DNA of 64,000 nt, taken from NCBI GenBank assembly GCA_035506515.1, contig DATJPG010000010.1:7423-71422 (forward strand), written 5' to 3'. This stretch comes from Acidobacteriota bacterium. Lineage in GTDB: Bacteria > Acidobacteriota > UBA6911. A model generated the notes under the pieces. It had not been told where the DNA came from and did no database searches. It saw only the letters and a program-made list of their open reading frames with translations. Of the stretch, positions 860 through 62,387 are shown in pieces. Position 1 is the first letter of the stretch; the number at the start of each line of letters is the position of its first letter. Both the position numbers and the translations under genes were made by a program.

Positions 860-1447
860 TCAAGGAACAACTATCTGATCGCCGTTTTTCAGCAAGATGT
901 TCTGGCTCATGTTCTTACCGTTTAGCATATCGTTATAGTTAAAAAGAAACGTTATCGATTTACCGTCTTCCTTACGGAAAATTTTGATTTTTTTGCCCTT
1001 AGCATCGATGGTCAGCCCGCCTGCGCGCGCCAGCAGTTCGAGGACGGTCGTTGGCGACCCAATTGTATACACTCCCGGTTTTTGTACCTGGCCCACGATC
1101 GAGACAGATTTGCTGAAGATCCTGGTAATCGTAACGGTCACAATGGGAACTGTTACATAATATTCCTTCAGCTTACCCGCAATCGTGTCCTGCAGTTGTT
1201 TGACGGTCAATCCATCCGCGGTCAAGTCTCCGATCAGGGGCAAACTGATTTTTCCATCAGGGCGGACGACCACATCTTTAATGGAAAGGTCGGCATCCTT
1301 CCAGACGTTTATTGCCATGACATCCTCGACGCCGATGATGTAGTCCTTGTTGGATCCACCGATGGCTTCTTGGGCCGGCTTCTGCGCCGCCGCAATTCCG
1401 CTGAATGCAAACACGAATATGAAAAGAGTGAATGCTGCCCTATGCAT
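860..1447 (-). CDS. Polysaccharide export protein (Wza/EpsE-like, SLBB domain), periplasmic
   Basis: ORF 860..1555 trimmed to the ATG at 1447, which is preceded by an AAGGAGG RBS. Signal peptide MHRAAFTLFIFVFAFSGIAAAQ. Wza-like motifs YIIGVEDVMAINVW and GKISLPLIGDL. Confidence 0.8.
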   Translation of the reverse strand: MHRAAFTLFIFVFAFSGIAAAQKPAQEAIGGSNKDYIIGVEDVMAINVWKDADLSIKDVVVRPDGKISLPLIGDLTADGLTVKQLQDTIAGKLKEYYVTVPIVTVTITRIFSKSVSIVGQVQKPGVYTIGSPTTVLELLARAGGLTIDAKGKKIKIFRKEDGKSITFLFNYNDMLNGKNMSQNILLKNGDQIVVP

Positions 1448-1671
1448 TTTGAAGAACCTCCTTTTAACTTTATCGTCGTAGCATTTACAAACCTTCTTGA
1501 TCTGTATGGAGATAAGAATAAAACTGTATAGACAGGATTCTCGCGTCGTCTTCAAAAAGGCGGTAAAGCAACACCAGGCGGTTGGAATAATTGTGCTGCC
1601 CTATTTGGTCCGTTTGAGATTAGCTTCCCAGCCATTGCTGCCGTATATGGAGTCCCGGTTTATGGGTTCGC

Positions 1672-3024
1672 CTAATGGCGGCTCACGCCCGGAAGAATGA
1701 TTTCGATGCCGGCGTAAATCTCCAGGCGTTTCAGGGGGACTGAGTTATCAAGATTGAATGCCCGGTCCTGATACTCGTAATTTCCGCTAATGCTGGCCAT
1801 AATGTAGCGGAACAGCAGGTACTTGAATCCTGCTCCTGAAATGAACGTATTCTGAAGCACGTGTTCCGCATAGGGTTCAGTACGGTAGTAATATGCTCCC
1901 AGCGTCAAGCTTGATTTCGATGTCAGCCGCTGGTCGAAGGACAGAGAAATAGTGTGCGTGTTGTTTAGTTGGGGAGTCCCGAGTTGATACTGCGCCGCTT
2001 TTGTGTACGATATTGAGAATATGCTTAAGTCCGTTGTGCGGCCGATGGCTGCACTAAAATATGAGGGAATATAGGAATGGCCGGGAGTATCAACCCATTC
2101 CACGCCTCCGTTTCCAAACAGCCGCCACTTTTTGCTTATTTGATATCCAAGACCGCCGCTAAGCCTTTTTAGTTCATCCTGCCGTACACCCGATGCCGTT
2201 TCATAGCGGCCATACATGAAATCGATATTCATATCGTATCTTCGGCTTAACTTGCGTTCAAAGTTCGTGCCGACATTGAATGCATCCGTGTCGTTCACCC
2301 CACTGGTTTCATAACGGAAAACTTGAGAATTGCCTTGGAAGCCGATACTGGTTTTCCTGTCTGGAGAATAGTTGAGCTGAGCGGCACCCCTATTCATGAA
2401 AACCCGTTCGTAGCTATACCCGGATATTCCCGGGCCTATCGGATTTTCTATCGGGAGCCCGGGTGAGAATCCTCCGGAAAGAGAAAGCAGATCTGAAGGC
2501 GCGCTGCGCACTTCATCTGTTGCGATGAAGGTCCAGTGACGGTTTGGCATGGATACAAAACTCACATTTCCCGTATGAAACGTCAGATCTCCTAAATTTG
2601 TTGCGTCGCTGAAGAATCTCTGCTCCAGTGAATAATCCACATGAAATTGGGTCTTTCTTCTTCCCAAGTTAATAAATACCGTAGGCAGAACCAGCATCTC
2701 CCGAGTGTCGGTATCTGAGACTGGCTCCGATTCCAGGATTGTTCTGTCGTAGAGTCCGAATAGGCCAAGAGAGAATCCCGCCTTGTTTCTCGAATTCATC
2801 ACTACCGAATCCTTTAGGGATCGTCCACTTGTCGGCATCTGATAAGCCGCATCGCTAATAGGCTGCTGACCGGATATTGCCTGGTCTTCCTGCGCAGGTT
2901 CGCCCGATGGCCCGTCCTGCGCCAGGATCGGGCCTCCTTGCAGAGAGATCAGGAAAATCAATTGAGTCAGTATGCACAGGCTTATTTTTGCGGCCATGAT
3001 TCGAGTCCCCCAGAGTTGATTCAC
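1672..3024 (-). CDS. Outer-membrane beta-barrel protein associated with polysaccharide export (EpsL-like)
   Basis: 450-aa ORF with N-terminal signal peptide (MAAKISLCILTQLIFLISLQGGPILAQD), a Gly/Tyr-rich sequence with alternating beta-strand character, and an aromatic C-terminal end. It sits between the PTP and Wza genes. The start is either GTG at 3024 or ATG at 2997. Confidence 0.5.
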   Translation of the reverse strand: MNQLWGTRIMAAKISLCILTQLIFLISLQGGPILAQDGPSGEPAQEDQAISGQQPISDAAYQMPTSGRSLKDSVVMNSRNKAGFSLGLFGLYDRTILESEPVSDTDTREMLVLPTVFINLGRRKTQFHVDYSLEQRFFSDATNLGDLTFHTGNVSFVSMPNRHWTFIATDEVRSAPSDLLSLSGGFSPGLPIENPIGPGISGYSYERVFMNRGAAQLNYSPDRKTSIGFQGNSQVFRYETSGVNDTDAFNVGTNFERKLSRRYDMNIDFMYGRYETASGVRQDELKRLSGGLGYQISKKWRLFGNGGVEWVDTPGHSYIPSYFSAAIGRTTDLSIFSISYTKAAQYQLGTPQLNNTHTISLSFDQRLTSKSSLTLGAYYYRTEPYAEHVLQNTFISGAGFKYLLFRYIMASISGNYEYQDRAFNLDNSVPLKRLEIYAGIEIILPGVSRH

Positions 3025-3219
3025 CTCTCTGCTTGTGAGGTTGTCTGTAATCTCTCTTTGTTCTTTGTTGGCGCGTTCACCAAAATACCAATCCTCTTCC
3101 CGGGTATCACTTCCTGATCAAGCAGGAGCCACCCTTCTCACGGTATGCCCCGTCACAATAACAATCGGCCGTATCTACGAATTGATGAGAAAGTAAAATG
3201 AATAACTTTTCCGATGTCC

Positions 3220-3771
3220 CTATATACAAAGCAGGTCCTTTGCCGCATACAAGGATTCCGATATCAACTTGTATGTCCGCGTGAAGCCATCTATTCCATG
3301 CCCGAAAGGATCCGCAATTTCCATGCCTCTGCCTTGATCACTGCTGAGTGCGCCAAGCAGGATGGGGAGGTGGGGACGGTTGCCCTCCATATTTGAAACG
3401 AACACTTCATTATCAAAATCAAAAACAAAGACTGCGGCTGCAGAATTTAGAAGAGAATACGTCAAAGGGCGCGAACGGTGCGGGCTTAAATCCACACCAA
3501 AAGAGAAAGCGGCTTCCACCGCCTCCGGAGGGCATGACCTGCCATAAGGTGGAAGATATCCGGCGGATTGGATTGTCAGTGATGAAGGGAAGATGGTCAT
3601 CGCAAGCCGCTCCGCGAAGGGACTTCTGCAAATATTTCCTCTGCAAACGAACAAGACCGGACCGTCCTTCGCCTTGGCGCTGCTTAGCGTCGCCCGCATC
3701 CGGCGCCGGTATGTTTTCTCGAGTAGCCCATTGGAGGCAAGAAGCCTCTTAAGGCGTGTTTTATAAGGCAT
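3220..3771 (-). CDS. Low-molecular-weight protein-tyrosine phosphatase (Wzb-like)
   Basis: P-loop CX5R motif LFVCRGNICRSPFAE and a DPY-like region (EIADPFGHG). Its size and its place in an EPS locus are typical. The true start may be the internal ATG at 3699. Confidence 0.85.
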   Translation of the reverse strand: MPYKTRLKRLLASNGLLEKTYRRRMRATLSSAKAKDGPVLFVCRGNICRSPFAERLAMTIFPSSLTIQSAGYLPPYGRSCPPEAVEAAFSFGVDLSPHRSRPLTYSLLNSAAAVFVFDFDNEVFVSNMEGNRPHLPILLGALSSDQGRGMEIADPFGHGIDGFTRTYKLISESLYAAKDLLCI

Positions 3772-3830
3772 CAGAGTCTGCTAGTAGGTTAGGAAATGTG
3801 CTAGCTTCAATTTGGACAGGTTCCTGGATA

Positions 3831-5045
3831 TCAGTGACGGCTATCTGCAAGAGCATGCGGCAAAAACCTTCGCATCCAGTTGCCAAAAGCGGCAAGGCCA
3901 GGCATAGGATCCGCGAGTGAGATATCTTCATATCGTAGGCCTGGATACCATGGAATAGCGACCTTCAACAAGCTCCACCAAAAATTAGGGAACGCTGAGG
4001 GCCAGCCGATAGGTTTCCCTTCCCAGACATTTTCCAGGAACACCAGATCTCCCACCAGCGATCGCGAGGTTATCGCTTTTCTGTAACTGACGACTGTTGG
4101 CGGCAGCTTGCCATGCAGAAACCACTCTACAAGAAAGAGAGGATAATTGATGCCACAACAAACGGGGAGATGAATGGATCCCCACGGCCTGGCATTTACT
4201 TCCATAAGTGTGTAACACCCTGTTTGAGGGGAGCGTTTGTATTCAACCATGGCAATGCCCTCGAAACCGACGGCCTGCAGAAGGCTCTCTCCTCCCTTGC
4301 GAAGCAGAGGACTGATTTCCTCCGATATGCGCGCGCTGCTTCCCGAACCTTTAGGGTCTTTTTCTCGCAACCGACGCCACTGGAAAGGGGCGTGCGACTG
4401 TTTGTTGATCAAAAAGCATGAAAATCCGATTCCGTTGCCTTCCACATATTCTTGAACCAGCACATCCCTGACTAGTTGCAGCCGGTTTTGAGCCGCTTTG
4501 ACAAGATCCTCATAGGAGTACGCATAGACAACTCCGCCCGAAATCCCTCCCAAATCCGACCATCGGATGGAAAACCTGTCTTTCATTACCAGTGGGAAGC
4601 CCCAATCACGCACGGTTTCCAATTCTTCTATCCTTGTAATGAGCAATGTCCTCGGCACGGCTATGCCAAGCTTTTGAGCGATCCGAACTGTGTGGTATTT
4701 GTCATTCAATTGTTCAAGGGCAGTATGCGGAGGCAAGCACAAATGTGTGAGCCCTTCAAATTGAAGCCGGTTATAAGAAAGCGGCCAGATCGTGGCATCC
4801 GTCATCGGGATAACCAGATCAAATGGCCTAGCACGGAGGAGAACTGTTAACCATTCGACAAAATGTGGAGCATCCTGTTCCGGCGACGGATACACGTCTG
4901 TGTGGGCGACATAGCGTGAAAAACGTGATGCGGCAAAATGCTCAGAACTGTACGCAAGAGTGACATGGAATCCATTGCGTCCCAATGCTCTGACGCACGT
5001 CAATGCCGCAGTGCTATGACCGTCCAGGACCAGGATTCTAGGCAT
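3831..5045 (-). CDS. ATP-grasp domain protein (predicted ligase)
   Basis: ORF 3831..5162; the likely start is MPRILVLDG at 5045. ATP-grasp-like features: PLVMKDRF...GG.GV, VQEYVEG, and EVNARPWGS near the C-terminus. Confidence 0.6.
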   Translation of the reverse strand: MPRILVLDGHSTAALTCVRALGRNGFHVTLAYSSEHFAASRFSRYVAHTDVYPSPEQDAPHFVEWLTVLLRARPFDLVIPMTDATIWPLSYNRLQFEGLTHLCLPPHTALEQLNDKYHTVRIAQKLGIAVPRTLLITRIEELETVRDWGFPLVMKDRFSIRWSDLGGISGGVVYAYSYEDLVKAAQNRLQLVRDVLVQEYVEGNGIGFSCFLINKQSHAPFQWRRLREKDPKGSGSSARISEEISPLLRKGGESLLQAVGFEGIAMVEYKRSPQTGCYTLMEVNARPWGSIHLPVCCGINYPLFLVEWFLHGKLPPTVVSYRKAITSRSLVGDLVFLENVWEGKPIGWPSAFPNFWWSLLKVAIPWYPGLRYEDISLADPMPGLAAFGNWMRRFLPHALADSRH

Positions 5046-5094
5046 CAATTCGGTTTGATCCCAATGTGCTCCGATGTGAATCGGAGATGCAAAA

Positions 5095-6093
5095 CTATAG
5101 AACACGCCCGCAAAAGGTATTTTCCAGGTGCCATCGAAACCCGTCAAAATCCATGGGCACATAGATTCGACGAAGGTTCAAGCGCGCACCCGGCGAATAG
5201 ACCGGCCCGGCATCGCACGTGACGGCCGTGGCATACCCGATCGTATCCGTAAGGCTGCGTGTCAAATTGTTCCAGTGGGGACTGAGAAAAGGCGATGGAT
5301 ATGAGAAATGAACAACCGGAGCGCCGAGTTTTTCCTCGATGCGCGCTTTGCTATCCCTCAACTCCTTTTCAGCCGCGCTGGCGGGTACATGGGCCAGATT
5401 GGGATGGGTCATGCTATGAGAGCCAATCACATGCCCTGCGTTCCGCAGCATGCTGGCCTGCTGCCATGTCATCATTAAGGGCGGAATTTCTGTAACCGGA
5501 GGGCTTCCCAAAGCATTCTCGATGTCCTGCAATGCACTTTCTTGTTGGTCTCCTGCAAGACAAGCCAGAGTGGAGCACGCGGCGTTGATCGCGCGCTCTC
5601 TTCCCTCTGTAGTATCCACTGGGAAGCGGACGCTGTCCCCGGGATTCAGCCAGCTTCCAACGGAGGCTTTTCCAAAAGCGAAACGCAGACGAACAAACCA
5701 GGGCGCGATGCCGGAATCGATTGAACCCACTGTCAAATAAAACGCTCCTGATATTTTAAATCGGTCCAGAATATCAGCTGCAAGGACGGCATTATCCGAA
5801 AAGCCGTCGTCGAATGTGATGGCGACGGCTCGTGACGGAATGGGATGATGATCGCGCAGTATTTCCAGGACCTGATCTACTCCAAGGACCCTGCAGTGGC
5901 TTGAAACATATCGCATCTGGCTTAAAAACACTTTGGCGGAGTGCGTGATGCCGCAACCTATATTCTCCGCAGATTCGGCCGGATTTTCTCGCACCGAATG
6001 GTACCGGAGAATCGCCAGTTTGGACGCAGTCCAGCGTTGAGAGGCCTGCAACAAGTGGCTCTCTAAAATCGCTCTTTTGATGAGACTTTTCAT
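5095..6093 (-). CDS. Polysaccharide deacetylase (NodB homology domain, PEP-CTERM-locus type)
   Basis: Motifs ITFDDGFSDN and GSHSMTHPNL. Confidence 0.8.
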   Translation of the reverse strand: MKSLIKRAILESHLLQASQRWTASKLAILRYHSVRENPAESAENIGCGITHSAKVFLSQMRYVSSHCRVLGVDQVLEILRDHHPIPSRAVAITFDDGFSDNAVLAADILDRFKISGAFYLTVGSIDSGIAPWFVRLRFAFGKASVGSWLNPGDSVRFPVDTTEGRERAINAACSTLACLAGDQQESALQDIENALGSPPVTEIPPLMMTWQQASMLRNAGHVIGSHSMTHPNLAHVPASAAEKELRDSKARIEEKLGAPVVHFSYPSPFLSPHWNNLTRSLTDTIGYATAVTCDAGPVYSPGARLNLRRIYVPMDFDGFRWHLENTFCGRVL

Positions 6094-6144: not shown

Positions 6145-7227
6145 TCAAGACTTCCCGGAAAGCCCGCGAGGGGATCGAGGATTGCAGGCTTCTTGTCCGA
6201 GGATGCAGGCCAGGCGGACCAATCGTCTAATCCCCGCTGCCTGTGTAAAGAACTGCTGCGCCCGGAGGCGTCCTTTCTCTCCCATGGTTCTTGCTTTTTC
6301 CGGATGATTCCACAATTCCAATATCCGCTCGCGCAGTAACGCGATGTCGCCGGGTGGGACAATGTATCCCGTTTCGCCATCGATAATGTAGTCATGAGCT
6401 GAAACGTCATCCATGGCAATCACCGGTTTCCCATGCCACATTCCGTTACAGAAATTGGCTTCTCCTCCCCCCTTAAGTCCGGTAGAAATCATGGGGATTA
6501 CCACCAAACGGCACAACGCCATCAGCTTGGAGTAAGACGGCTCTGAAGCCGCCAGAGGGATCACGTTGGGCAAGTCTTCGATAGTCTTTATGACTGACGG
6601 ATGAGTACAGCTGATAATAAGCTTTACGTCTGTGCCGCGAATTGCCTCCACTAAAGCCCTATAGTCGCGCTTGCCGTTTCCGCCGGCAAAAACGAAATCA
6701 AGCGTCTGCAAATCTCTCGGGCTTCTTTTCGAATGGTTTGCCTTATAGGGAATGAACATAAAGAGGTTTTCGGGAAGCCCGAAGAAACGGGAATAGTTTT
6801 GCGGTTGTCTGCTCGACCAGAATGTGGCTAGCGAGCAACCGAGGAAACAGCGCCGAGCCAAATAGCGCTTTAACGTGCTTCGCGGTTCGAGATGCGAATC
6901 CCAGAAAAGAATCACTTTTCTTCTGAAAAAAAGGAAGTAATTGAGGAGACAGGCATAGTTCCCCAAAGAGGCACTGCCGTTCGCCAGCACCACTGTTCGG
7001 CCGTCTGCCGCGCACAATAACTGGAACGCCCAGATCAATTCGGAAAGCGGCTTGCAGAAGGAGACCAGACGGCTAAGCGTACAAGGTCGGACTTCCTCTA
7101 CCGGCAGCAATCCCTCCGTATAGACGGAATCGAAGGCTTCATGGGAAATAAGGCGTATTCCTTCCGGCACGCCAAAATGCTCCCCGTCTAGTACCCGCCA
7201 ATCTTTTCTTGCCTCGTCGATGGTCAC
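6145..7227 (-). CDS. Glycosyltransferase family 1 (GT4)
   Basis: C-terminal GT-B motif GGEANFCNGMWHGKPVIAMDDVSAHDYIIDGETGYIV (EX7E). Confidence 0.8.
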   Translation of the reverse strand: MTIDEARKDWRVLDGEHFGVPEGIRLISHEAFDSVYTEGLLPVEEVRPCTLSRLVSFCKPLSELIWAFQLLCAADGRTVVLANGSASLGNYACLLNYFLFFRRKVILFWDSHLEPRSTLKRYLARRCFLGCSLATFWSSRQPQNYSRFFGLPENLFMFIPYKANHSKRSPRDLQTLDFVFAGGNGKRDYRALVEAIRGTDVKLIISCTHPSVIKTIEDLPNVIPLAASEPSYSKLMALCRLVVIPMISTGLKGGGEANFCNGMWHGKPVIAMDDVSAHDYIIDGETGYIVPPGDIALLRERILELWNHPEKARTMGEKGRLRAQQFFTQAAGIRRLVRLACILGQEACNPRSPRGLSGKS

Positions 7228-36343: not shown

Positions 36344-36694
36344 TCAATTTCCATGAGGCTTCGAACGCACTGTTTGCGGCGTCAGTTTGAGATTGGGGAA
36401 CATGCGGAAGAAGGAATCAAGCGATCGGTCACTTCCATCAAAGATCTCGAGTGTGTCGTTGGGCAAGAAATGCCGCTTCGATAACTCGAGAGACTCCAGC
36501 CGAGCAGCTTCCAGAAAAATTTCCAGGCTGGAATAATCCCGATCATCAAGCACGACATACTCGACGATCTCGCTCCCTCTTTTGGTGACAGCAGCAATCA
36601 CTCTGATCATTGTGATGGTAGTATCCCCGAACTCGATAGAGTTCAATCTGCTTGATAGCTGGGGCTGGTTGGGGACATAGTCTCCGACCTGCAC
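36344..36694 (-). CDS. Hypothetical protein (co-oriented with, and 24 nt downstream of, the peroxiredoxin gene)
   Basis: ORF only; no recognisable motif. Confidence 0.3.
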   Translation of the reverse strand: MQVGDYVPNQPQLSSRLNSIEFGDTTITMIRVIAAVTKRGSEIVEYVVLDDRDYSSLEIFLEAARLESLELSKRHFLPNDTLEIFDGSDRSLDSFFRMFPNLKLTPQTVRSKPHGN

Positions 36695-52504: not shown

Positions 52505-52579
52505 TGGAGCGGGAAACGGGATTCGAACCCGCGACTTCGACCTTGGCAAGGTCGCACTCTACCACTGAGTTATTCCCGC
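52505..52579 (-). tRNA. tRNA-Gly (anticodon GCC)
   Basis: Reverse complement GCGGGAATAACTCAGTGGTAGAGTGCGACCTTGCCAAGGTCGAAGTCGCGGGTTCGAATCCCGTTTCCCGCTCCA folds as a cloverleaf with a 7-bp acceptor stem and anticodon loop TTGCCAA. It closely resembles canonical tRNA-Gly-GCC. Confidence 0.85.
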
Positions 52580-53052: not shown

Positions 53053-53154
53053 GAATTTCGGTGACAGTCACCATAACTCCCAAATTGTTCTGTCCTCATC
53101 GAACAGACTTCAGCCTATCCGAATTTAGGAGTTATGGTGACTGTCACCGAAATT
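53053..53154. repeat. Palindromic intergenic repeat, copy A (arms GAATTTCGGTGACAGTCACCATAACTCC / reverse complement)
   Basis: 28-nt arms at 53053–53080 and 53127–53154 are perfect reverse complements. It lies between yraN and cysS. Confidence 0.8.
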
Positions 53155-54543
53155 CTACACGCGTTTCCAGCGGACGCCGTCTTTGGTGTCTTCGAGCTGG
53201 ATACCCTTGGACAGGAGCGACTGGCGGATGCGGTCGGCTTCGGCGAAGTTGCGTTGCCGGCGGGCTGCCTGGCGAGCCTCGATTTGTTGGGCGATTTCTT
53301 CGTCCAGGAGTTCGGATTTTGCACGCAGGATATTGAATACCGCATCGATCTCCTTGAGAAAATCGGTGGCGATGCGGGCATCGCCGCCCGAAAGCGCTTT
53401 CTGGCTGTCTTTCTGATACGCAAGGCGAACGAAATCGAAGATGACGGCGAGGCCGGCCGACGTGTTCAAATCGGCGTCCATCGCTTCTATGAATTTTTCG
53501 CGAGCGGCCTGCAATTCCGCTGCAAACGGGGGACTCGGCGGCTCGTCGGTGGCGATCTCTTTGGCACGGAGCAAGAAATCCTCGAGACGCTGGATCGACG
53601 ATTGCGCCTGGCGCAATCCGTCCATCGTGAAGTTGAGCTGCTTGCGGTAGTGCACCGAGAGCAGCAGATAGCGTATTGCTTCCGGTGAATAGCCTTTATC
53701 GAGCAGGTCGTTCAGCGTAAAGAAATTGCCCAGGGATTTGGACATCTTCTCGCCCTCGACGATCAGAAACTCCGGGTGCACCCAGTAATGCACGAAGGGC
53801 TTTCCTGTTGCACACTCGCTCTGCGCTATCTCGTTTTCGTGGTGAGGGAATACCAGATCCACGCCGCCGCAATGGATGTCGAATGTTTCGCCGAGATACT
53901 TCATGCTCATCGCGCTGCACTCGATGTGCCATCCGGGGCGCCCCGGGCCTATCGCGGTGTCCCAAAAGTCCTCCCCCTCTTTTTTCGCTTTCCAAAGAAC
54001 GAAATCGCGCGCGTTCTCCTTGTCATACTTGTCCGTGTCGACACTCGCTCCCGCCTGCGCGCCGCTGAAATCGGCCTTGCTGAGCCTGCCGTATCCGGGA
54101 AACCGGGCGATGCTGAAATACACCGATCCGTCCTTGCGATACGTGTATCCCTTTTCCTCGAGCTTTTGTATCAAGGCGACCATTTCGGGTATATGGTCCG
54201 TTGCACGCGGCATCAACCCGGGCATCTCGATCCGGAGCGTCTTGCAGTCGGCGAGAAAAGCCTCGGTGTATCTCAACGTGTAGTCCCGCAGCGTCATGCC
54301 CTGCGCGCGCGCGTTGTGGATCGTCTTGTCGTCCACGTCGGTGATGTTCATGACGTGGACTACGCGGTAGTGGCGATATTCGAGGTACCGGCGCAGCAGG
54401 TCCTGGAAGACGAAGGTGCGAAAGTTGCCGATGTGGGCGTAGTCGTAGACCGTCGGGCCGCAGATGTAGAAGCGGACCACGCCTTCTTCGATGGGATGAA
54501 ATTCCTCCTCCGCGTTGGTGAGGGTGTTATGCAATCTCAGCAT
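53155..54543 (-). CDS. cysS: Cysteine--tRNA ligase
   Basis: Class I HIGH (HIGN) and KMSKS motifs; zinc/cysteine-binding residues; 462 aa. Confidence 0.9.
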   Translation of the reverse strand: MLRLHNTLTNAEEEFHPIEEGVVRFYICGPTVYDYAHIGNFRTFVFQDLLRRYLEYRHYRVVHVMNITDVDDKTIHNARAQGMTLRDYTLRYTEAFLADCKTLRIEMPGLMPRATDHIPEMVALIQKLEEKGYTYRKDGSVYFSIARFPGYGRLSKADFSGAQAGASVDTDKYDKENARDFVLWKAKKEGEDFWDTAIGPGRPGWHIECSAMSMKYLGETFDIHCGGVDLVFPHHENEIAQSECATGKPFVHYWVHPEFLIVEGEKMSKSLGNFFTLNDLLDKGYSPEAIRYLLLSVHYRKQLNFTMDGLRQAQSSIQRLEDFLLRAKEIATDEPPSPPFAAELQAAREKFIEAMDADLNTSAGLAVIFDFVRLAYQKDSQKALSGGDARIATDFLKEIDAVFNILRAKSELLDEEIAQQIEARQAARRQRNFAEADRIRQSLLSKGIQLEDTKDGVRWKRV

Positions 54544-54659
54544 AGATCGTCGTCTCCAGAAGGGAAATGGTGGAGGGAATAAGACAAAATTGCAACCACG
54601 AATTACACGAATTACACAAAATTTCGGGATGCGGCAGCTTGTGCCGTACTCCGAAGGAA

Positions 54660-56228
54660 CTATTTCGCTACGCGAAGTAAGTAGAGGTTGGCTTGAGTGC
54701 AGAGAGGGGTGACCGTGACGCTTCGGAGGACCGGGATGGTTTTGGTGACGACTAAGGCTGTGGGGTGGGACTGCAGGAATTCTGCAAGCGACTCTGGAGA
54801 ATCGAGATCTTCCACAATTTGGTAGTTGGTATAGTAGTGGAGAGTGTGGTGGAAGAACTGGTAGGTGACTATGGGTTCGCCGGTCGTTCGCAGGCTCAGC
54901 GCCTGATGCGCGATTTCACGCGTGGAGTGGTATGCGCCGAGGACGGGAAATGCGAATTGCGCGACGGCGACGAGCAGAACGACTCCCTGCAAGGCAGTGG
55001 CGATAAAAGCGCGCCGGACCTGTGATTTGAAGCCGAATGCAAATGCGAAAACTGCGGGGATCAGAACTGCGGCTGAAAGGATCAGCCCGATACCCCAATG
55101 GCCGCCATAGTTTTTGTTGAAGAAGATAGGGGCTGCGATAGCCATGCCGACGGAAAGAATCAACTGCAAAACCATGGCGGCGCGCATGCCGGATGTTTTT
55201 GCCGATCCATCAATCCAGCGCGAAACGCGAATGCCCAGAATTAACGCCAGCGGAGGCAGCGACGGAAGAATATAGCCGGCGAGTTTTGATCCTGAAAGCG
55301 AAAAGAAAATCATTGGGACCAGAAACCAGCAGGCCAGGAAAACTACCGCAGGGTTCCACTCGCGCCAGCGGCGCAGACTCTGTAATGGCGACTTTGAAAG
55401 AAGAATCAACAGCCAGCCGCTCCATGGAAAAATGAGCGCCAGCAGGACTGGGATGTAAAAATAAAAGGGCTGCGAGTGATGATGGATGTCGGTGAAAAAG
55501 CGCGCGATGTTGTGATTTATGAAAAATGATGCGATAAAGGCAAAGCCGTTCTGACGAAAAGCCAGCCAGAACCATGGGATTGAGACAGCGCCCGTGATGA
55601 TGATCCCGGGGATAACTCGCCAGCGGCGCAGCACGCCGGCTCGATCGTCCAGCAGCCAAATGCAAAGTCCGATGCCGGCTGCCAGAATCAGGGCGACGGG
55701 ACCTTTGGCTAAGATCGCCAGTCCCAGGAAAATGTAGGCGAGGAGTACTCTGGGCCCGATGTTTTTTTCGATGGCTGCTGCAAGGATTGCCATGGCGATC
55801 GTGAAGCAGCAGGTGAAAGGCATGTCGGTGGACGCGCCGCGGCCGTAACCGGCGAATCCAAGACTGGTAAGCAGGACGGCTGCGCTTAAAAAACCGGCGA
55901 GGCGAGTGGTAAGCACTGAAGCAAGCCAGAAAACGGATAAGGCTGCTATCACGGCGCAGGCGACTGGAGCGATTCTTGCGGCGGTTTCGTGGCTTTTTAA
56001 AACCGAATAGAAGGGAATCGTCAGCCAATAGTAGAGCGGGGGTTTCTCAAGCCAGGGATTGCCCTCAAGGGTAGGCGTTACCCATTTCCCCTGGTCGTGC
56101 ATTTCCTGGGCGATTCTGGCGTACCTAGGTTCATCGGCTCCGGTGAGCGGAAGCGAGCCGAGGCGGAAGAAAAGCGTTGCCAGGGAGATTACGAACAGAA
56201 CTATCAGGGAAGGGAGCGTGCGCTGCAC
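54660..56228 (-). CDS. GT39-family (ArnT/PMT-like) phospholipid-carrier-dependent glycosyltransferase
   Basis: ORF 54660..56273. The first 15 codons are encoded by repeat copy B, so the probable start is GTG at 56228, giving MQRTLPSLIVLFVISL.... Motif DEPRYARIAQEM, followed by about 12 TM helices. Confidence 0.65.
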   Translation of the reverse strand: MQRTLPSLIVLFVISLATLFFRLGSLPLTGADEPRYARIAQEMHDQGKWVTPTLEGNPWLEKPPLYYWLTIPFYSVLKSHETAARIAPVACAVIAALSVFWLASVLTTRLAGFLSAAVLLTSLGFAGYGRGASTDMPFTCCFTIAMAILAAAIEKNIGPRVLLAYIFLGLAILAKGPVALILAAGIGLCIWLLDDRAGVLRRWRVIPGIIITGAVSIPWFWLAFRQNGFAFIASFFINHNIARFFTDIHHHSQPFYFYIPVLLALIFPWSGWLLILLSKSPLQSLRRWREWNPAVVFLACWFLVPMIFFSLSGSKLAGYILPSLPPLALILGIRVSRWIDGSAKTSGMRAAMVLQLILSVGMAIAAPIFFNKNYGGHWGIGLILSAAVLIPAVFAFAFGFKSQVRRAFIATALQGVVLLVAVAQFAFPVLGAYHSTREIAHQALSLRTTGEPIVTYQFFHHTLHYYTNYQIVEDLDSPESLAEFLQSHPTALVVTKTIPVLRSVTVTPLCTQANLYLLRVAK

Positions 56229-56243
56229 TGTCCGGCTCGCATG

Positions 56244-56345
56244 GAATTTCGGTGACAGATGCCTTAATTCCAAAATTCAGATGAATTGATGAAAAATCGC
56301 AACGCCTGAAAAATATGGGAATTAAGGCATTTGTCACCGAAATTC
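56244..56345. repeat. Palindromic intergenic repeat, copy B
   Basis: Arms GAATTTCGGTGACAGATGCCTTAATTCC (56244–56271) and GGAATTAAGGCATTTGTCACCGAAATTC (56318–56345), with one mismatch. Core TGAAAAATCGCAACGCCTGAA. Confidence 0.8.
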
Positions 56346-56346
56346 G

Positions 56347-56376
56347 AAAAAAAGGGGCGACCAAATCGGTCGCCCC
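56347..56376 (-). terminator. Rho-independent terminator downstream of groEL
   Basis: Minus strand: GGGGCGACC-GATTT-GGTCGCCCC followed by TTTTTTT. Confidence 0.7.
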
Positions 56377-56416
56377 GTATGCTTGAAAACGGCAGCTTGC
56401 TGCCGCAATTCTAAAA

Positions 56417-58072
<1,656 letters not shown>

Positions 58073-58082
58073 TCAGTTTGAG

Positions 58083-58370
58083 TTATCCCAAAATCGCGAG
58101 AATTTCCTCTTCGCGCATGATGAGGTAGTCCTGGTCATCGACTTTAATCTCAGTACCGGAATATTTTCCGAAGAGGATCCTGTCGCCCTTCTTGACGTCC
58201 ATGGCGGCACGCTTGCCGTCATCCGTGATTTTCCCCGGACCGGCTGCAACCACTTCGCCTTCCATGGGTTTTTCTTTGGCTGTGTCGGGAATGATGATGC
58301 CACCCTTCACAATTTCTTTCTCTTCTACGCGTTTTACTAGAACCCGATCGTGCAAAGGCCTAACATTCAT
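58083..58370 (-). CDS. groS: Co-chaperonin GroES (Hsp10)
   Basis: [19 protein letters not shown]...; ATG at 58370 with an AGAGGAG RBS (ORF track 58397). Confidence 0.9.
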
Positions 58371-58433
58371 AGATGATCTCCTCTCTTTAAGGGCCACTTA
58401 TAAGGCGTCTCGCTAGATTATTCCCCGCCCGGA

Positions 58434-58460
58434 TTAGCACTCTCCTAGGGCGAGTGCCAA
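58434..58460 (-). promoter_or_regulatory. CIRCE operator (HrcA binding site) upstream of groES
   Basis: TTAGCACTC-N9-GAGTGCCAA matches the CIRCE consensus TTAGCACTC-N9-GAGTGCTAA with one mismatch. It lies 64 nt upstream of the groES start. Confidence 0.75.
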
Positions 58461-58501
58461 TAGTATAAGAGCCATCCTTGCGTTGTCAACCTGAGCACCA
58501 A

Positions 58502-58603
58502 GAATTTCGGTGACAGATACCTTAATTCCCAAATTCAAGTGAATTGATGAAAAACCGCAACGCTTGAAGAATTTGGGAATTGAGGCATTTGTCACCGAAA
58601 TTC
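58502..58603. repeat. Palindromic intergenic repeat, copy C
   Basis: Arms GAATTTCGGTGACAGATACCTTAATTCCC / GGGAATTGAGGCATTTGTCACCGAAATTC. The core is nearly identical to copy B. Confidence 0.8.
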
Positions 58604-58682
58604 ACCGAATCTTAATAAAAATCACATCATTGCTTCACAATCATTCTGTAAATCTTTCCGAGAATTGATATTAGGAGGAAAT

Positions 58683-59537
58683 ATGAAGAAGCTGGGATTG
58701 GCAATAACCCTTATCTTTGCACTCATTTTGGCCGGGTGCGGTGGCGGAAAGAGCGCTTCGAACGCCGTCAGGTCCGTCACCATCAAGGGTTCCGACACGA
58801 TGGTGATCTTGGGACAGCGCTGGGCTGAAACATACATGAAAGAGCATCCAGATAAACGAATCCAGGTAACCGGCGGAGGATCCGGCACTGGAATCGCCGC
58901 CTTGATCAACGGCGGAACCGACATCTGCGAAGCTTCGCGGCCCATGAAGGATAAAGAGAAGGAAATGGTCCGCGCCCGTCATAACAAAGAGGTGACCGAA
59001 ATACCCGTCGCCCTGGATGGAATCGCTATTTACGTCCCGGAATCCTCATCCATGCAAACCATCACGATGCCGCAGCTCAAATCCATCTTTACCGGCACGA
59101 TCACCAACTGGCGCGATGTCGGCGGCAAAGACCAGCGGATTGTCGCCTATAGCCGCGAAAACAATTCCGGCACATATGTCTTTTTCAAAGAGCACGTCCT
59201 CAACAACGAGGATTTCGCACGCGATATCCAGACGCTGCCGGGAACGGCGGCGGTCGTCAACGCGGTATCCAAGGACCCGGCATCTGTAGGCTATGGTGGA
59301 ATCGCATATGCGACAGGCATTAAGGCTCTTTCGGTAAAAAAGGACGATGCATCCGAGGCCATCAAGCCAACGATGGAATCAGTCGAATCGGGCAGATATC
59401 CGCTATCCCGGAGCCTCTACTTTTATACTGTCGGACAGCCTGCGGGCGAAATTAAGGAATTCATCGACTGGGTATTGAGTCCCGAAGGGCAAAAGATATG
59501 CGAAGCGGTGGGGTATTATCCTCTGAACCGGAGATAG
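58683..59537 (+). CDS. pstS: Phosphate ABC transporter substrate-binding lipoprotein PstS
   Basis: AGGAGG RBS; lipoprotein signal MKKLGLAITLIFALILAGCGG; PBP motifs GSDTM, TGGGSGTGIAAL. Confidence 0.85.
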   Translation: MKKLGLAITLIFALILAGCGGGKSASNAVRSVTIKGSDTMVILGQRWAETYMKEHPDKRIQVTGGGSGTGIAALINGGTDICEASRPMKDKEKEMVRARHNKEVTEIPVALDGIAIYVPESSSMQTITMPQLKSIFTGTITNWRDVGGKDQRIVAYSRENNSGTYVFFKEHVLNNEDFARDIQTLPGTAAVVNAVSKDPASVGYGGIAYATGIKALSVKKDDASEAIKPTMESVESGRYPLSRSLYFYTVGQPAGEIKEFIDWVLSPEGQKICEAVGYYPLNRR

Positions 59538-60499
59538 TGTTGTTTACGCAGCGTGACGCGGGCCGATCCGGCGCCCTGACCGATCGAATTGCCGGGACTG
59601 CAATTCGAGGCAGCGCCTTCGTGGCAATCCTGTCGCTTATCCTGATTTTCATCTTCATAGGCAAGGAAGCCCTCCCCATATTCACCTCGGCCGAGATACG
59701 GAAAGAAGCGAACCTGGGCAGGCTCTTCCTGCCCCGGGCGCCACGCGCGGGCGCGGACACGGAGCTTACATGGCAACCGGTATCGGAGAACCCAAAATAC
59801 TCGCTCCTGCCGCTCCTGGCCGGTACGCTGAAAGTGACCGTCATCGCCGTGATTATCGCGATTCCGCTAGCCGTACTAGCGGCTCTCTACACCGCTGAGT
59901 TCGCGCCTCCCTGGGCGCGGGAGACTGTCAAGCCCGCCATCGAACTCCTGGCCGGCATTCCGAGCGTTGTCGTCGGCTTTTTCTGCCTGATGGTGCTGGC
60001 CGGCTGGCTGCAGCGCACGTTTGGCTGGACCTTTCGCCTTAATGCGGTGACGGCAGGGATCGGGCTGAGTCTCGCGGTAATCCCGATCGTGTACACCGTT
60101 TGCGAAGACGCGTTTTCGTCAGTGCCGCAGACATTCCGCGAAGGCTCGATCGCCATGGGTGCTTCGTCGTGGCAGACCGCATCGCGCGTCGTGCTCCCCG
60201 CCGGAATGCCGGGGGTCCTTGCGGCGTGTGTCCTCGGCTTCGGCCGGGCCATCGGCGAGACGATGATCGTCCTCATGGCTTCGGGGAATGCGGCTATTCT
60301 TTCGCTTTCCCCCACGGATTCCATCCGCACTTTTTCCGCCACGATTGCGGCGGAGCTGGGCGAGGTTGTAGTCGGCAGTCCCCATTACCATGTGCTGTTT
60401 TTCATCGGGGCTTTTTTGTTCCTGATCACTTTCGTCATCAATCTGTTCGGCCATTGGTGGGTAGGCCGCCTTCAGAAAAGGCTACAGGGAGCGTCGTAA
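59537..60499 (+). CDS. pstC: Phosphate ABC transporter permease PstC
   Basis: GTG overlapping the pstS TAG (taGTG); six TM helices; EAA-like loop. Confidence 0.8.
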   Translation: MLFTQRDAGRSGALTDRIAGTAIRGSAFVAILSLILIFIFIGKEALPIFTSAEIRKEANLGRLFLPRAPRAGADTELTWQPVSENPKYSLLPLLAGTLKVTVIAVIIAIPLAVLAALYTAEFAPPWARETVKPAIELLAGIPSVVVGFFCLMVLAGWLQRTFGWTFRLNAVTAGIGLSLAVIPIVYTVCEDAFSSVPQTFREGSIAMGASSWQTASRVVLPAGMPGVLAACVLGFGRAIGETMIVLMASGNAAILSLSPTDSIRTFSATIAAELGEVVVGSPHYHVLFFIGAFLFLITFVINLFGHWWVGRLQKRLQGAS

Positions 60500-60503
60500 G
60501 AGA

Positions 60504-61412
60504 ATGATCGAGCGAAGCAGAGTGGTTGGCGGGCTGTTCCAGTTCTTCTGCATTGTCGCCTGCGCCCTCATCATCGTAATGCTGGTTGTGATTTTGGGGA
60601 ACATTGTCGCCAACGGAGCCGGCTCCATCACTCTAGGTTTCCTCACGAAAGCTCCGGAATCCGGCATGAAAAGCGGAGGCATTTTCCCCGCGATATTCGG
60701 CACATTTGCGCTGGTCGTTCTGATGACGATTGCCGTGATCCCGCTGGGCGTGGCGACTGCGATTTATATGCATGAATACGCGCCCAAGCGGTCGCGCATC
60801 GTGCACCTCGTCCGCCTTGCCATTCAGAACCTGGCCGGCGTGCCGGCGATCGTGTTCGGGCTTTTCGGGCTGGGATTCTTCATCGAGTTTGTCGGCCGGG
60901 GAATCGATAAGGCATTTTATGGAGGCAACCTCGTTTACGGGCAGCCGGCGATTGTCTGGGCGGCGCTGACGCTCGCGTTGCTGACGATGCCGACCGTCGT
61001 GGTGGCGACCGAAGAGGCGCTCCGCGCGATCCCACAGAGCTATCGCGAGGTGGCGTATTCGCTGGGAGCGACGCGCTGGCAGGTGATCCGGCGTGTGGTG
61101 CTGCCGCAGGCGGTGGGGGGGATTCTGACGGGCGGCATTCTCGCGGTGAGCCGTGGATCAGGCGAAGTCGCGCCGGTCATGTTTACGGGCGCAGCGTATT
61201 TTCTGCCGGAACTGCCGAAGCAACTGAACAATCAGTTCATGGAACTCGGCTATCACGTTTATGTGCTGACGACCCAGTCGCCGGATGTTGAAGCGACCAA
61301 GCCGATTCTATACGCGACGGTGCTGGTGCTTCTGTCGCTCACATTCCTGCTGAACTTCAGCGCGATCATGATCCGCGCGCAAATCCGTAAGCGGCTGCGC
61401 TATGGGCGTTAA
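60504..61412 (+). CDS. pstA: Phosphate ABC transporter permease PstA
   Basis: Permease with six TM helices, adjacent to pstC. Confidence 0.85.
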   Translation: MIERSRVVGGLFQFFCIVACALIIVMLVVILGNIVANGAGSITLGFLTKAPESGMKSGGIFPAIFGTFALVVLMTIAVIPLGVATAIYMHEYAPKRSRIVHLVRLAIQNLAGVPAIVFGLFGLGFFIEFVGRGIDKAFYGGNLVYGQPAIVWAALTLALLTMPTVVVATEEALRAIPQSYREVAYSLGATRWQVIRRVVLPQAVGGILTGGILAVSRGSGEVAPVMFTGAAYFLPELPKQLNNQFMELGYHVYVLTTQSPDVEATKPILYATVLVLLSLTFLLNFSAIMIRAQIRKRLRYGR

Positions 61413-61418
61413 TTTCCC

Positions 61419-61517
61419 AGTTTCGGTGACAGCTACCTTCATTCCCAATTTCAGATACGTTGGGGAAAAATCGCAAAGCTTGAGGAATTTGGAAATGAAG
61501 GTAGCGGTCACCAAAAG
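61419..61517. repeat. Palindromic intergenic repeat, copy D (more divergent)
   Basis: Arms AGTTTCGGTGACAGCTACCTTCATTCCC / GGAAATGAAGGTAGCGGTCACCAAAAGT. Core GGAAAAATCGCAAAGCTTGAGG. Confidence 0.7.
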
Positions 61518-61532
61518 TTTAGGAAGGCAATT

Positions 61533-62282
61533 GTGATTGAGGGCCAGGTGAAGGTTGAGGATCTGAAAGTCCATGTGAACGGGACGGAGATTCTGAAAGG
61601 TATCTGCCTGGAGGCCCGGCGCGGCGAAATCCTTTCGATTATCGGTCCGGCAGGTGCGGGCAAGACCACGTTCCTGCGCTGCCTGAACCGCATGGCGGAA
61701 CTTGATCTGGATTTCAAAATTTCCGGCAATATCCTGCTCGATGGGCAGTCCATTTACGATTCCGATGTCGCAATGCTCCGCCGCAAGGTCGGAATGGTTT
61801 TTTCGGTGCCGGTGCCTCTGCCGATGTCCGTTTACGAAAACCTGACCTTCGGCCTGCGGCTTTCATCCGGGTCCCGCAGGAGCTACGACGAGCGCGTGGA
61901 AAAAGCCTTGCGCGCGGCATATCTCTGGGACGAAATGAAGGACCGGCTGAAGGAGCCGGCGCGCAACCTTTCGGGAGGGCAGCAGCAGCGCCTGTGTCTG
62001 GCGCGCACGCTCGCGCTCGAGCCGCACGTGCTGTTGCTCGATGAGCCGTGTTCGGGCCTGGATCCGATCTCGACGGCGCGGATCGAAGAAGCGTTGAGGA
62101 GCTTGAAAACCAATCTGGCGATTATTTTGGTTACGAACAACGTCAAGCAGGCTGCCCGGGCGTCGGATCGAACGGCATTCTTCCTGTTCGGAGAACTGAT
62201 TGAGCTCGAGCCGATAGAAAAGCTGTTCACTACTCCGCGGGACCGGCGCACCGCGGACTACATATCGGGGCGATTCGGTTAA
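61533..62282 (+). CDS. pstB: Phosphate ABC transporter ATP-binding protein PstB (copy 1)
   Basis: Walker A GPAGAGKTT, signature LSGGQQQR, Walker B LLLDEP, C-terminal ...YISGRFG. GTG start with an AGGAAGG RBS. Confidence 0.85.
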   Translation: MIEGQVKVEDLKVHVNGTEILKGICLEARRGEILSIIGPAGAGKTTFLRCLNRMAELDLDFKISGNILLDGQSIYDSDVAMLRRKVGMVFSVPVPLPMSVYENLTFGLRLSSGSRRSYDERVEKALRAAYLWDEMKDRLKEPARNLSGGQQQRLCLARTLALEPHVLLLDEPCSGLDPISTARIEEALRSLKTNLAIILVTNNVKQAARASDRTAFFLFGELIELEPIEKLFTTPRDRRTADYISGRFG

Positions 62283-62285
62283 GAG

Positions 62286-62387
62286 GAATTTCGGTGACAG
62301 ACACCATAACTCCCCAATTCTCTAGAGATATAGGCTATCAGTCAGATCGCCTGAATTTGGGGGTTATGGCGTCTGTCACCGAAATTC
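62286..62387. repeat. Palindromic intergenic repeat, copy E
   Basis: Arms GAATTTCGGTGACAGACACCATAACTCCCC / GGGGGTTATGGCGTCTGTCACCGAAATTC. The arm variant matches copy A. Confidence 0.8.

Follow-up and report, generated by a model that had tools for sequence, protein, structure and literature searches.

A probable REPIN family and its likely tyrosine transposase in uncultured soil Acidobacteriota: a new family of a known kind of system

The DNA analyzed here is a stretch of 64,000 nucleotides (the window) from an uncultured soil bacterium of the phylum Acidobacteriota, contained in contig DATJPG010000010.1; its sequence is that of metagenome contig k141_5173762 of ENA ERZ27256505. Toward its end, five palindromes of about 102 nucleotides (nt) are located between genes. 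In our view these are very probably REPINs, i.e. head-to-head doublets of repetitive extragenic palindromic (REP) units, whose presumed partner, a REP-associated tyrosine transposase (RAYT), is encoded at another locus, very likely of the same genome. The REPINs and the RAYT constitute a new family of a known kind of system.

A preliminary description of the window had placed the palindromes between yraN and cysS, PMT and groEL, groES and pstS, pstA and pstB1, and pstB1 and pstB2. All five were found at these sites, and the gene contexts agree with the Pfam labels from which we took them (Table 1). Their occurrence is far beyond chance. The 12-mer TTTCGGTGACAG, with at most one mismatch, is present 10 times in the window compared with 0.29 expected occurrences, and none of 100 shuffled sequences equalled this number. 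Folding of each copy had been suggested as a check, and whichever strand is folded, all five are predicted to form long hairpins (-40 to -66 kcal/mol, z scores of -6.5 to -13). A hidden Markov model (HMM) built from the five copies detected no additional copy in positions 1-50000 of the window; the copies are thus locally clustered (p ~0.002, scan-statistic approximation). One near-match at position 36580 lies within coding sequence and was rejected as an element.

Table 1. Coordinates and locations of the five REPIN copies in the window
Copy	Position	Strand	Description
A	53053-53155		103-nt REPIN, between cysS stop and yraN (UPF0102) start
B	56244-56345		102-nt REPIN, after groEL intrinsic terminator, 15 nt upstream of called PMT start
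C	58502-58603		102-nt REPIN in divergent groES/pstS control region
D	61418-61519		102-nt REPIN, pstA/pstB1 junction; most decayed of the five
E	62286-62387		102-nt REPIN, pstB1/pstB2 junction

The dimensions given earlier had to be revised: arms described as 28-30 nt long measure 34-35 nt, and the centre comprises ~32-35 nt instead of 40-45 nt. A nested hairpin in the centre is predicted in some copies, but it is not conserved across them. Copies B, C and D have the core TGAAAAAYCGCAAMGCYTGA in common, as described; A and E, which were thought to share an arm variant of their own, differ in it (A has GTCACCATAACTCC and E has GACACCATAACTCC). The arms of copy A are nearly identical to the family consensus. 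Those of copy B have diverged in step, with pairing retained, and by its interior it groups with the subfamily of C and D; copy C is 91% identical to it. Copy A overlaps the cysS stop codon (TAG, minus strand), which it was said to abut, by one base. The longest open reading frame (ORF) of the PMT gene begins within copy B and has 15 codons ahead of the called start, and this explains the 15 extra N-terminal codons noted before for this GT39 protein. Copy C is 12 nt away from the -35 box of groES and ~80 nt upstream of the pstS start. Copies D and E begin 5 nt past the pstA stop and 3 nt past the pstB1 stop, respectively, and both end 13 nt short of the next start codon (GTG of pstB1, ATG of pstB2); a ribosome-binding site, AGGAAGG, lies between copy D and the pstB1 start.

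Each arm is a REP-like imperfect palindrome of 34 nt (AATTTCGGTGACAGTCACCATAAC..AAATT) with the consensus GAATTTCGGTGACAGTCACCATAAC(T/C)(C/T)C(C/G)AAATT. Around a 13-nt core (GGTGAC-N-GTCACC), the foot on the outer side, AATTTCGG, is paired to CC(C/G)AAATT on the inner side; this inner partner reads CCGAAATT or CGAAATT, and CCCAAATT in the variant found in the window. With two arms inverted around a spacer of ~32 nt, the whole element forms a hairpin of ~34 bp. In 40 distinct copies of ~102 nt, 96.6% of the arm cells pair, and 13 of the 34 pairs are altered on both sides (74 cells). The covariation score of 0.185, compared with 0.078 in shuffles, was attained by none of 500 shuffles. As the columns TT, GGTGAC and CC are invariant, the constraint is twofold: on sequence in the foot and core, and on pairing in the other positions. 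At orthologous sites of two metagenome-assembled genomes (MAGs) with ~95% nucleotide identity in flanking DNA, arms diverge by 3%, spacers by 16% and flanks by 5-8%. The spacer is thus the freest part of the element, which argues against a small RNA with a loop function. Mismatches on the sense strand of the arms, counted in 33 elements between co-directional genes, comprised 20 G.U and 25 A.C. Since no preference for G.U is evident, the hairpin constraint looks strand-symmetric and located at the DNA level.

Copies outside the window were collected in several ways. A degenerate arm pattern of 25 nt, scanned over one genome per species, matched 38 loci. Twenty-nine of these come from four Acidobacteriota MAGs (CAVXIH01, CAVRAD01, CAZTHE01 and Bryobacterales PMTT01), with 11, 9, 7 and 2 loci, numbers that count matches to the exact pattern and not whole-genome copies. 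The remainder consists of one good copy in a Woeseiaceae MAG and eight singletons, roughly as many as chance would give. Scanning metagenome contigs for an 18-mer yielded at least 120 stretches, and an HMM of the arm, run over all fetched DNA (loci designated L), identified 306 arms, 101 paired elements and 104 solo arms. Lengths fall into classes of 27, ~89, ~102 (the commonest) and ~190 nt. The 27-nt singlet has the form GAATTTCGGTGAC-N-GTCACCGAAATTC, and the ~190-nt elements have a moderately conserved, A+T-rich interior in common. Eighty of 85 unique elements are situated outside long ORFs. With copies at many loci in several genomes, the five palindromes belong to an element family and are not a local duplication. 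The family is REP/MITE-like, as had been proposed, and the RAYT between the same arms (see below) places it specifically in the REP/RAYT branch.

The interiors of the ~102-nt copies make up several subfamilies. Only 7 of 42 copies have the B/C/D type, and an attempt to orient all of them by their interior was abandoned. In a search against Rfam 15 at gathering and E-value thresholds, only a tRNA passed; below threshold, the elements match plant and animal microRNA precursor models because they are long hairpins. A literature search for the arm sequence returned no relevant paper. The Woeseiaceae copy, a well-formed 89-nt element (L017 6291-6379), belongs to a MAG from marine sand labelled as Gammaproteobacteria, which suggests horizontal transfer or a binning error.

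The search for a cognate RAYT, advised in the preliminary description, led to a gene that is bracketed by the same arms. An ORF of 229 amino acids (aa) lies between inverted arms 797-799 nt apart in L099 (10390-11186) and L140, and the same arm-RAYT-arm unit is found in L166, L167 and L168. Four related genomes carry such a unit, one of them very likely the MAG of the window itself. The protein matches the Pfam family Y1_Tnp (PF01797) with E values of 6e-12 and 4e-13, and among NCBIfam families it scores best with NF047646, REP-associated tyrosine transposase (66-72 bits). A search of the PDB with the single sequence gave no match and a profile was needed; with a profile of 12 homologues, the best solved relative was TnpA-REP of E. 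coli (4ER8, E = 8.6e-7), followed by 2EC2 and 2XM3 (IS200/IS605). Neither the HUH histidines nor the catalytic tyrosine (RYIELNP) vary among the homologues, and the protein bears a conserved C-terminal extension.

No RAYT is encoded within the window. A homologue with 73% identity, P0127, is found on another contig (L166) from the assembly sample of the window, ERZ27256505, and its NCBI accession (HTY61481) is 602 numbers apart from that of PstB1 of the window (HTY60879). The shared sample and the nearby accession numbers make it very likely that P0127 belongs to the same MAG. It lies between arms at L166 9882-9915 and 10689-10721, with its stop codon overlapped by the one downstream. In L166, L167 and L168 the RAYT is flanked by MTHFR/FlpD genes on one side and by a sigma-54 activator gene and Kdp genes on the other; a sigma-54 activator gene is also adjacent to it in L099. 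Identities between the RAYTs of genomes with this locus range from 70 to 98%, and the pattern would fit the single-locus, vertically inherited habit of RAYTs.

Two other candidates for a mobile partner were rejected. L043 encodes an IS200-type Y1 transposase (1967-3205, 148 aa, NF033573) between cysS and PMT in a gene order like that of the window. It has no similarity to the RAYT, and no arms of the REPIN family are present at the locus; instead, several GTAG-type REPs (CTACCGGGGG...CCCCCGGTAG) and tandem TGGGGCTATTGACC repeats surround the gene, and these are a different REP system. In L025, far-apart inverted arms around a phoU-like gene proved to be coincidental solo arms and not an autonomous element.

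Comparison of related genomes reveals empty sites. L042, which has the same gene order and a PstB1 with 87% identity, lacks an element at sites A, B, D and E, where the gaps measure 40-77 nt. The B/C/D interior type is also present at loci that are not orthologous (two in L028, as well as L054 and L153); whole doublets thus spread as units. We examined the flanks of 89 unique elements for target-site duplications, which the preliminary description had raised. Direct repeats of 2-8 nt were no commoner than in shuffled pairings, and no target motif was found in these flanks. The lack of a duplication fits the chemistry of Y1/HUH enzymes and argues against a miniature inverted-repeat transposable element (MITE) moved by a DDE enzyme. 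A pstS/pstC site in L012 had been taken for an orthologous empty site; this was withdrawn, as the site is part of a paralogous second pst operon, in a MAG sharing 95% identity with the XIH MAG.

By analogy to characterized REP/RAYT and IS200/IS605 systems, we propose that a putatively single-copy, vertically inherited RAYT would recognize the arms as folded single-stranded DNA (ssDNA), probably at the invariant foot and core. It would cut and rejoin DNA without target-site duplication and in this way copy or move doublets, so that non-autonomous doublets could spread through extragenic DNA. The RAYT bracketed by the arms would then be the enzyme that moves the present copies. Copies A, D and E would be transcribed within operons and form RNA helices of ~34 bp that start 0-5 nt past stop codons, and copy B may behave similarly. 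As with E. coli REPs, such helices may act as a barrier to 3' exonucleases, as a target for RNase III or as a brake on translation termination of the upstream gene. The local cluster probably represents permissive or preferred insertion sites; sister species bear other palindromes at the same pst junctions.

Several observations weigh against an assignment of the five elements and the RAYT to one REPIN system. At 72 bits, the RAYT stays under the curated equivalog cut-off of NF047646, which is 80. Its assignment to the genome of the window is based on sample and accession proximity and not on a closed genome, and G+C content is 58% in L166, compared with 53% in the whole window and ~57% in its last 14 kb. 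The arms flanking the RAYT are of the ..CCTCGAAATT variant and those of the window of the ..CTCCCAAATT variant. Furthermore, all RAYT copies are at one syntenic locus, and in terms of evolution the association of RAYT and arms therefore amounts to a single observation and not to several. As ssDNA, one arm of the window variant folds weakly by itself (consensus -3.4 kcal/mol, no fold for copy B); the corresponding values are -6 to -6.8 kcal/mol for metagenome variants and -11.3 kcal/mol for the 27-nt singlet. Finally, the canonical 5' GT[AG]G foot is missing at either end, the conserved end being (G/T)AATTTCGG. RAYT subclasses with atypical feet do exist (Quentin et al., PMC6006769), so this absence excludes the canonical classes but not a REP-RAYT system.

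The position of the elements relative to genes is strongly biased. Where an element faces the 3' end of a gene, the distance is between -12 and +8 nt in 49 of 76 cases; for gene starts, this is true for 9 of 62 (Fisher p = 2e-9). In the -12 class, the arm provides the final two codons and the stop codon of the gene, TTT CGG TGA (Phe-Arg-stop). Genes end within an arm in this way at L037 ~3326-3340, L099 10380-10401 and L166 10700-10725; a phoB homologue in L037 and the sigma-54 activator gene beside the RAYT are examples.

The junction of pstB1 and pstB2 contains a palindromic insert of ~75-400 nt in 6 of the 7 related genomes with sequence, and these inserts come from at least three unrelated families; two further genomes have long gaps there, seen as gene coordinates only. 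L044, whose PstB1 is 94% identical to that of the window, carries unrelated G+C-rich hairpins of ~75 nt at both the pstA/pstB1 and the pstB1/pstB2 junction. At pstB1/pstB2, yet another family is represented in L043 by a 94-nt palindrome, and L045 has 414 nt of assorted REP-like hairpins there. In the CAZTHE and CAVXIH MAGs, the REPIN family itself occupies these junctions in differing forms: copies of 89 and 183 nt, half of an element and a decayed relic.

Some additional features of these junctions were noted. In the closest PstB1 relatives, the sites matching copies C, D and E hold unrelated G+C-rich hairpins and REP-like units such as GGGCTGAAGCCCGCACCCACATG (L044 3300-3400, 4145-4250 and 230-500; L045 1800-2215). 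A second doublet-like family, CCTT(G/C)GAGTGCGGC(G/A)GCTTG..., is found at L043 10797-10890 and L005 ~6880-7033; it lies at pstB1/pstB2 in L043, and in the CAVRAD MAG at a site where the 95%-identical CAVXIH MAG differs in sequence. The conserved coding end of PstB-type ATPases, ..(A/G)ATTCGG(T/G)TAA, resembles the repeat foot AATTTCGGTGA, and elements repeatedly follow such genes (window 62270-62300, L012 4805-4840, L007 2740-2775, L028 5310-5335); this may be fortuitous or may hint at how targets are chosen. In CAVXIH, pstB1 and pstB2 (L037 5263-5481 and 5680-6425) are split across frames in tblastn, probably because of long-read assembly errors and not because they are pseudogenes.

Given their length and their inverted ends, the elements could also be classical MITEs, i.e. 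internally deleted forms of an insertion sequence whose terminal inverted repeats measure 34 bp, mobilized in trans by a DDE transposase that works on double-stranded DNA. Long, near-perfect inverted termini and a size of ~100 nt are known from Correia, ERIC and RUP elements, the discrete classes of 89, 102 and 190 nt resemble deletion derivatives, and there is a unit of ~800 nt with a transposase gene between the same termini. That gene, however, encodes a Y1/HUH enzyme and is the only coding unit found between such termini; no DDE transposase was detected there in ~1 Mb of loci. It was found at one conserved chromosomal locus across species and not in many copies, solo arms and 27-nt singlets occur as they do for REPs, and neither a duplication of 2-8 nt nor a conserved target motif accompanies the elements. 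We thus regard this explanation as largely refuted and very unlikely to hold. A second alternative assumes that the 13-bp palindromes GGTGAC-N-GTCACC are paired operators of a dimeric DNA-binding protein, the elements being perhaps linked to the phosphate regulon. CTGTCAC does resemble a Pho-box half-site, core and foot are the least variable columns, pattern matches are enriched at pst/phoU loci (window, L007, L012, L024, L025, L037), and phoU in L012 is bracketed by 27-nt singlets. Yet most copies are located at gene 3' ends or within operons and not at promoters, most loci encode unrelated functions, and direct repeats of the PhoB type with 11-bp spacing are absent. In copies B, C and D, the inner half of the 13-mer is mutated and the change is compensated on the other arm, so it is pairing between the arms that is conserved and not an operator. 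We consider operators extremely improbable.

In a third alternative, the elements would be cis-acting RNA modules that were selected by the host to tune mRNA decay, RNase III processing or termination, for instance in pstA/pstB1/pstB2, and their mobility would be secondary. The accumulation at gene 3' ends, the covariation of the arms and the repeated occupation of the pstB1/pstB2 junction are all in line with this, as are the effects of E. coli REPs on mRNA stability and translation. Helices formed by E. coli REPs can block 3' exonucleases, attract RNase III and impede a terminating ribosome. Newbury et al. reportedly found in 1987 that REPs stabilize upstream mRNA, REP biology in E. coli is said to have been treated by Khemici and Carpousis in 2004, and according to what is reported of Liang, Rudd and Deutscher (2015), REPs at most ~15 nt away from a stop codon lower the translation of the upstream gene.

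However, the sense-strand mismatches give no signal of selection at the transcript level, copies are also present in divergent promoter regions and between convergent genes, L042 does without an insert at four of five sites, and the spacer is free to vary. Moreover, in short gaps the position after the stop codon is the only harmless site, and this alone could yield the observed bias. Both the strand test and the sites left empty in L042 point to elements that are tolerated by the host and not needed by it, and we consider selection for an RNA module unlikely. The small RNA or terminator module proposed in the preliminary description finds no support either, given the fast-evolving centre, the lack of a U-tract, the lack of a G.U preference in sense-strand mismatches and the occurrence in tandem, convergent and divergent contexts. 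A terminator scan reported the groEL terminator beside copy B but none of the five elements, and no T-run was found in their 3' flanks; in L012, AATTATTTTTT comes after one of the 27-nt singlets. Still, the repeated refilling of junctions keeps a functional reading alive at low probability. It is conceivable, if rather doubtful, that post-stop sites, chiefly those in pstA/pstB1/pstB2, are refilled by unrelated palindromes because the host selects for a long hairpin there. The hairpins would then throttle or uncouple the cistrons of the phosphate transporter via stalled termination or RNase III cleavage, with the REPIN/RAYT system as the supplier of regulatory hairpins.

We return to the interpretation as REPINs and compare the family with known systems. 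The references are the REPINs and RAYT of P. fluorescens SBW25 and the bacterial interspersed mosaic elements (BIMEs) of E. coli with TnpA-REP/RayT (Bertels and Rainey 2011, PMC3116915; Di Nocera 2013, PMC3733652; Quentin 2018, PMC6006769). As in these systems, two short inverted palindromic units around a spacer form one long hairpin, the units are dispersed and, in the loci examined, mostly extragenic and occur as singlets, doublets and clusters, compensatory changes preserve the hairpin, target sites are not duplicated, a Y1/HUH gene is located between the same units at one conserved locus, and elements are found inside operons for ABC transporters. The grammar of singlets, head-to-head dimers and BIME-like mosaics described by Di Nocera (PMC3733652) and Quentin (PMC6006769) is matched as well. 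Unlike the reference systems, the Acidobacteriota family has no GT[AG]G foot but the conserved end AATTTCGG, its unit of 34 nt has a weak stem of its own, its RAYT of 229 aa has a C-terminal extension and scores just under the NCBIfam equivalog cut-off, and its hosts are a clade of uncultured Acidobacteriota. The REPs of Solibacter usitatus (Quentin et al., Table S1, PMC6006769) are unrelated in sequence to the arm.

Correia elements of Neisseria, ERIC/IRU and RUP share with the Acidobacteriota family the size of ~100-150 nt, the long inverted termini and the existence of several size classes; they are also intergenic, co-transcribed with their neighbours and predicted to form long double-stranded RNA hairpins. 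The TA target duplication, IHF site and outward promoters of Correia elements were not seen in the Acidobacteriota family. We know of no Y1 transposase partner for Correia, ERIC/IRU or RUP elements, and the presence of one sets the Acidobacteriota family apart from them. Elements of the IS200/IS605 group have the Y1/HUH catalytic fold, insertion without duplication and structured ends in common with it. Their own ends, however, are subterminal hairpins that are not mutual inverted repeats, and they multiply as whole gene-bearing units, whereas here the gene was found at a single locus and hairpins of ~100 nt multiply.

In addition, structural differences between the two 95%-identical MAGs coincide with REP sites. 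L012 has a second pstSCAB-phoU operon of 4.5 kb (1041-5546) where L028 has a single 103-nt doublet (3479-3581); two singlets of 27 nt and a doublet lie within the operon, and at one edge the difference coincides precisely with the repeat. Other cases comprise a gene-bearing segment of 1.2 kb bounded by two doublets (L018 3905-5112, compared with L020 4785-4851), a site with identical outer feet (GGATTTCGGTG...CACCGAAATCC) around a wholly different interior (L030 6501-6760, L036 7232-7524), and ~530 nt that replace the 5' arm of a doublet (L028 5325-5426, L031 6702-7261). A further reading, conceivable but rather doubtful, is that REP sites are break-points at which operons such as the second pst-phoU operon are gained or lost between such closely related genomes.

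Few systems of this sort have been described in Acidobacteriota, and the findings add an uncharacterized REPIN family together with a RAYT; the non-GTAG foot widens the range of sequences thought to be recognized by these enzymes. For annotation, the elements account for spurious N-terminal extensions (PMT and homologues of PstB1) and for genes whose last two codons and stop codon come from a repeat. They also mark sites at which metagenome assemblies break; many of the arm-bearing metagenome contigs are only 1-3 kb long, and some have an arm near the contig end. Stop-codon placement and the turnover of palindromes at operon junctions provide a natural data set on the question of whether REP hairpins are selected for effects on mRNA or tolerated. 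These two aspects are the parts most worth following, while the element itself is of moderate to low interest.

Several minor observations concern the architecture of longer and composite elements. The ~190-nt class is represented at L046, L057, L060, L066, L071, L091, L130, L150 and L160, and also at L024 1472-1656 and L037 3139-3337. Its interior ends in ...GTAACTYCTTTGTTTTCATAGGGAAT beside one arm, which resembles ATTTTGTGAAATAAAAA between the upstream arm and the start of the RAYT; the ~190-nt elements may be derivatives of the RAYT unit that arose by internal deletion. A palindrome of 15 nt, TTCCACCAGGTGGAA, of which variants like CGCCTGGCGG exist, often abuts either arm end and produces BIME-like mosaic arrays, for example at L084 374-470, L141 965-1060, L095 697-720 and L024 1657-1668. 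Palindromes made of tandem heptamers, (AGGAATC)n and (CAGGAGT)n, are present at L008 4150-4360 and L030 6540-6740, and one of them is nested in an element of the REPIN family.

As for the surroundings of the five copies in the window, the groEL terminator at 56354-56376 (minus strand) consists of GGGGCGACC...GGTCGCCCC followed by T7 and ends exactly at the start of copy B. Just left of copy C, positions 58441-58489 contain the groES promoter, TTGACA-16-TATACT (11 of 12 matches), as well as the CIRCE operator TTAGCACTC-N9-GAGTGCCAA. A tRNA gene (52508-52579, minus strand, 71 bits in Rfam) is situated between yraN and the gene for a protein with an S1 domain. The G+C content is ~48-55% over most of the window and 52.5-58.5% (mostly ~57%) in the last 14 kb, where all five elements reside.

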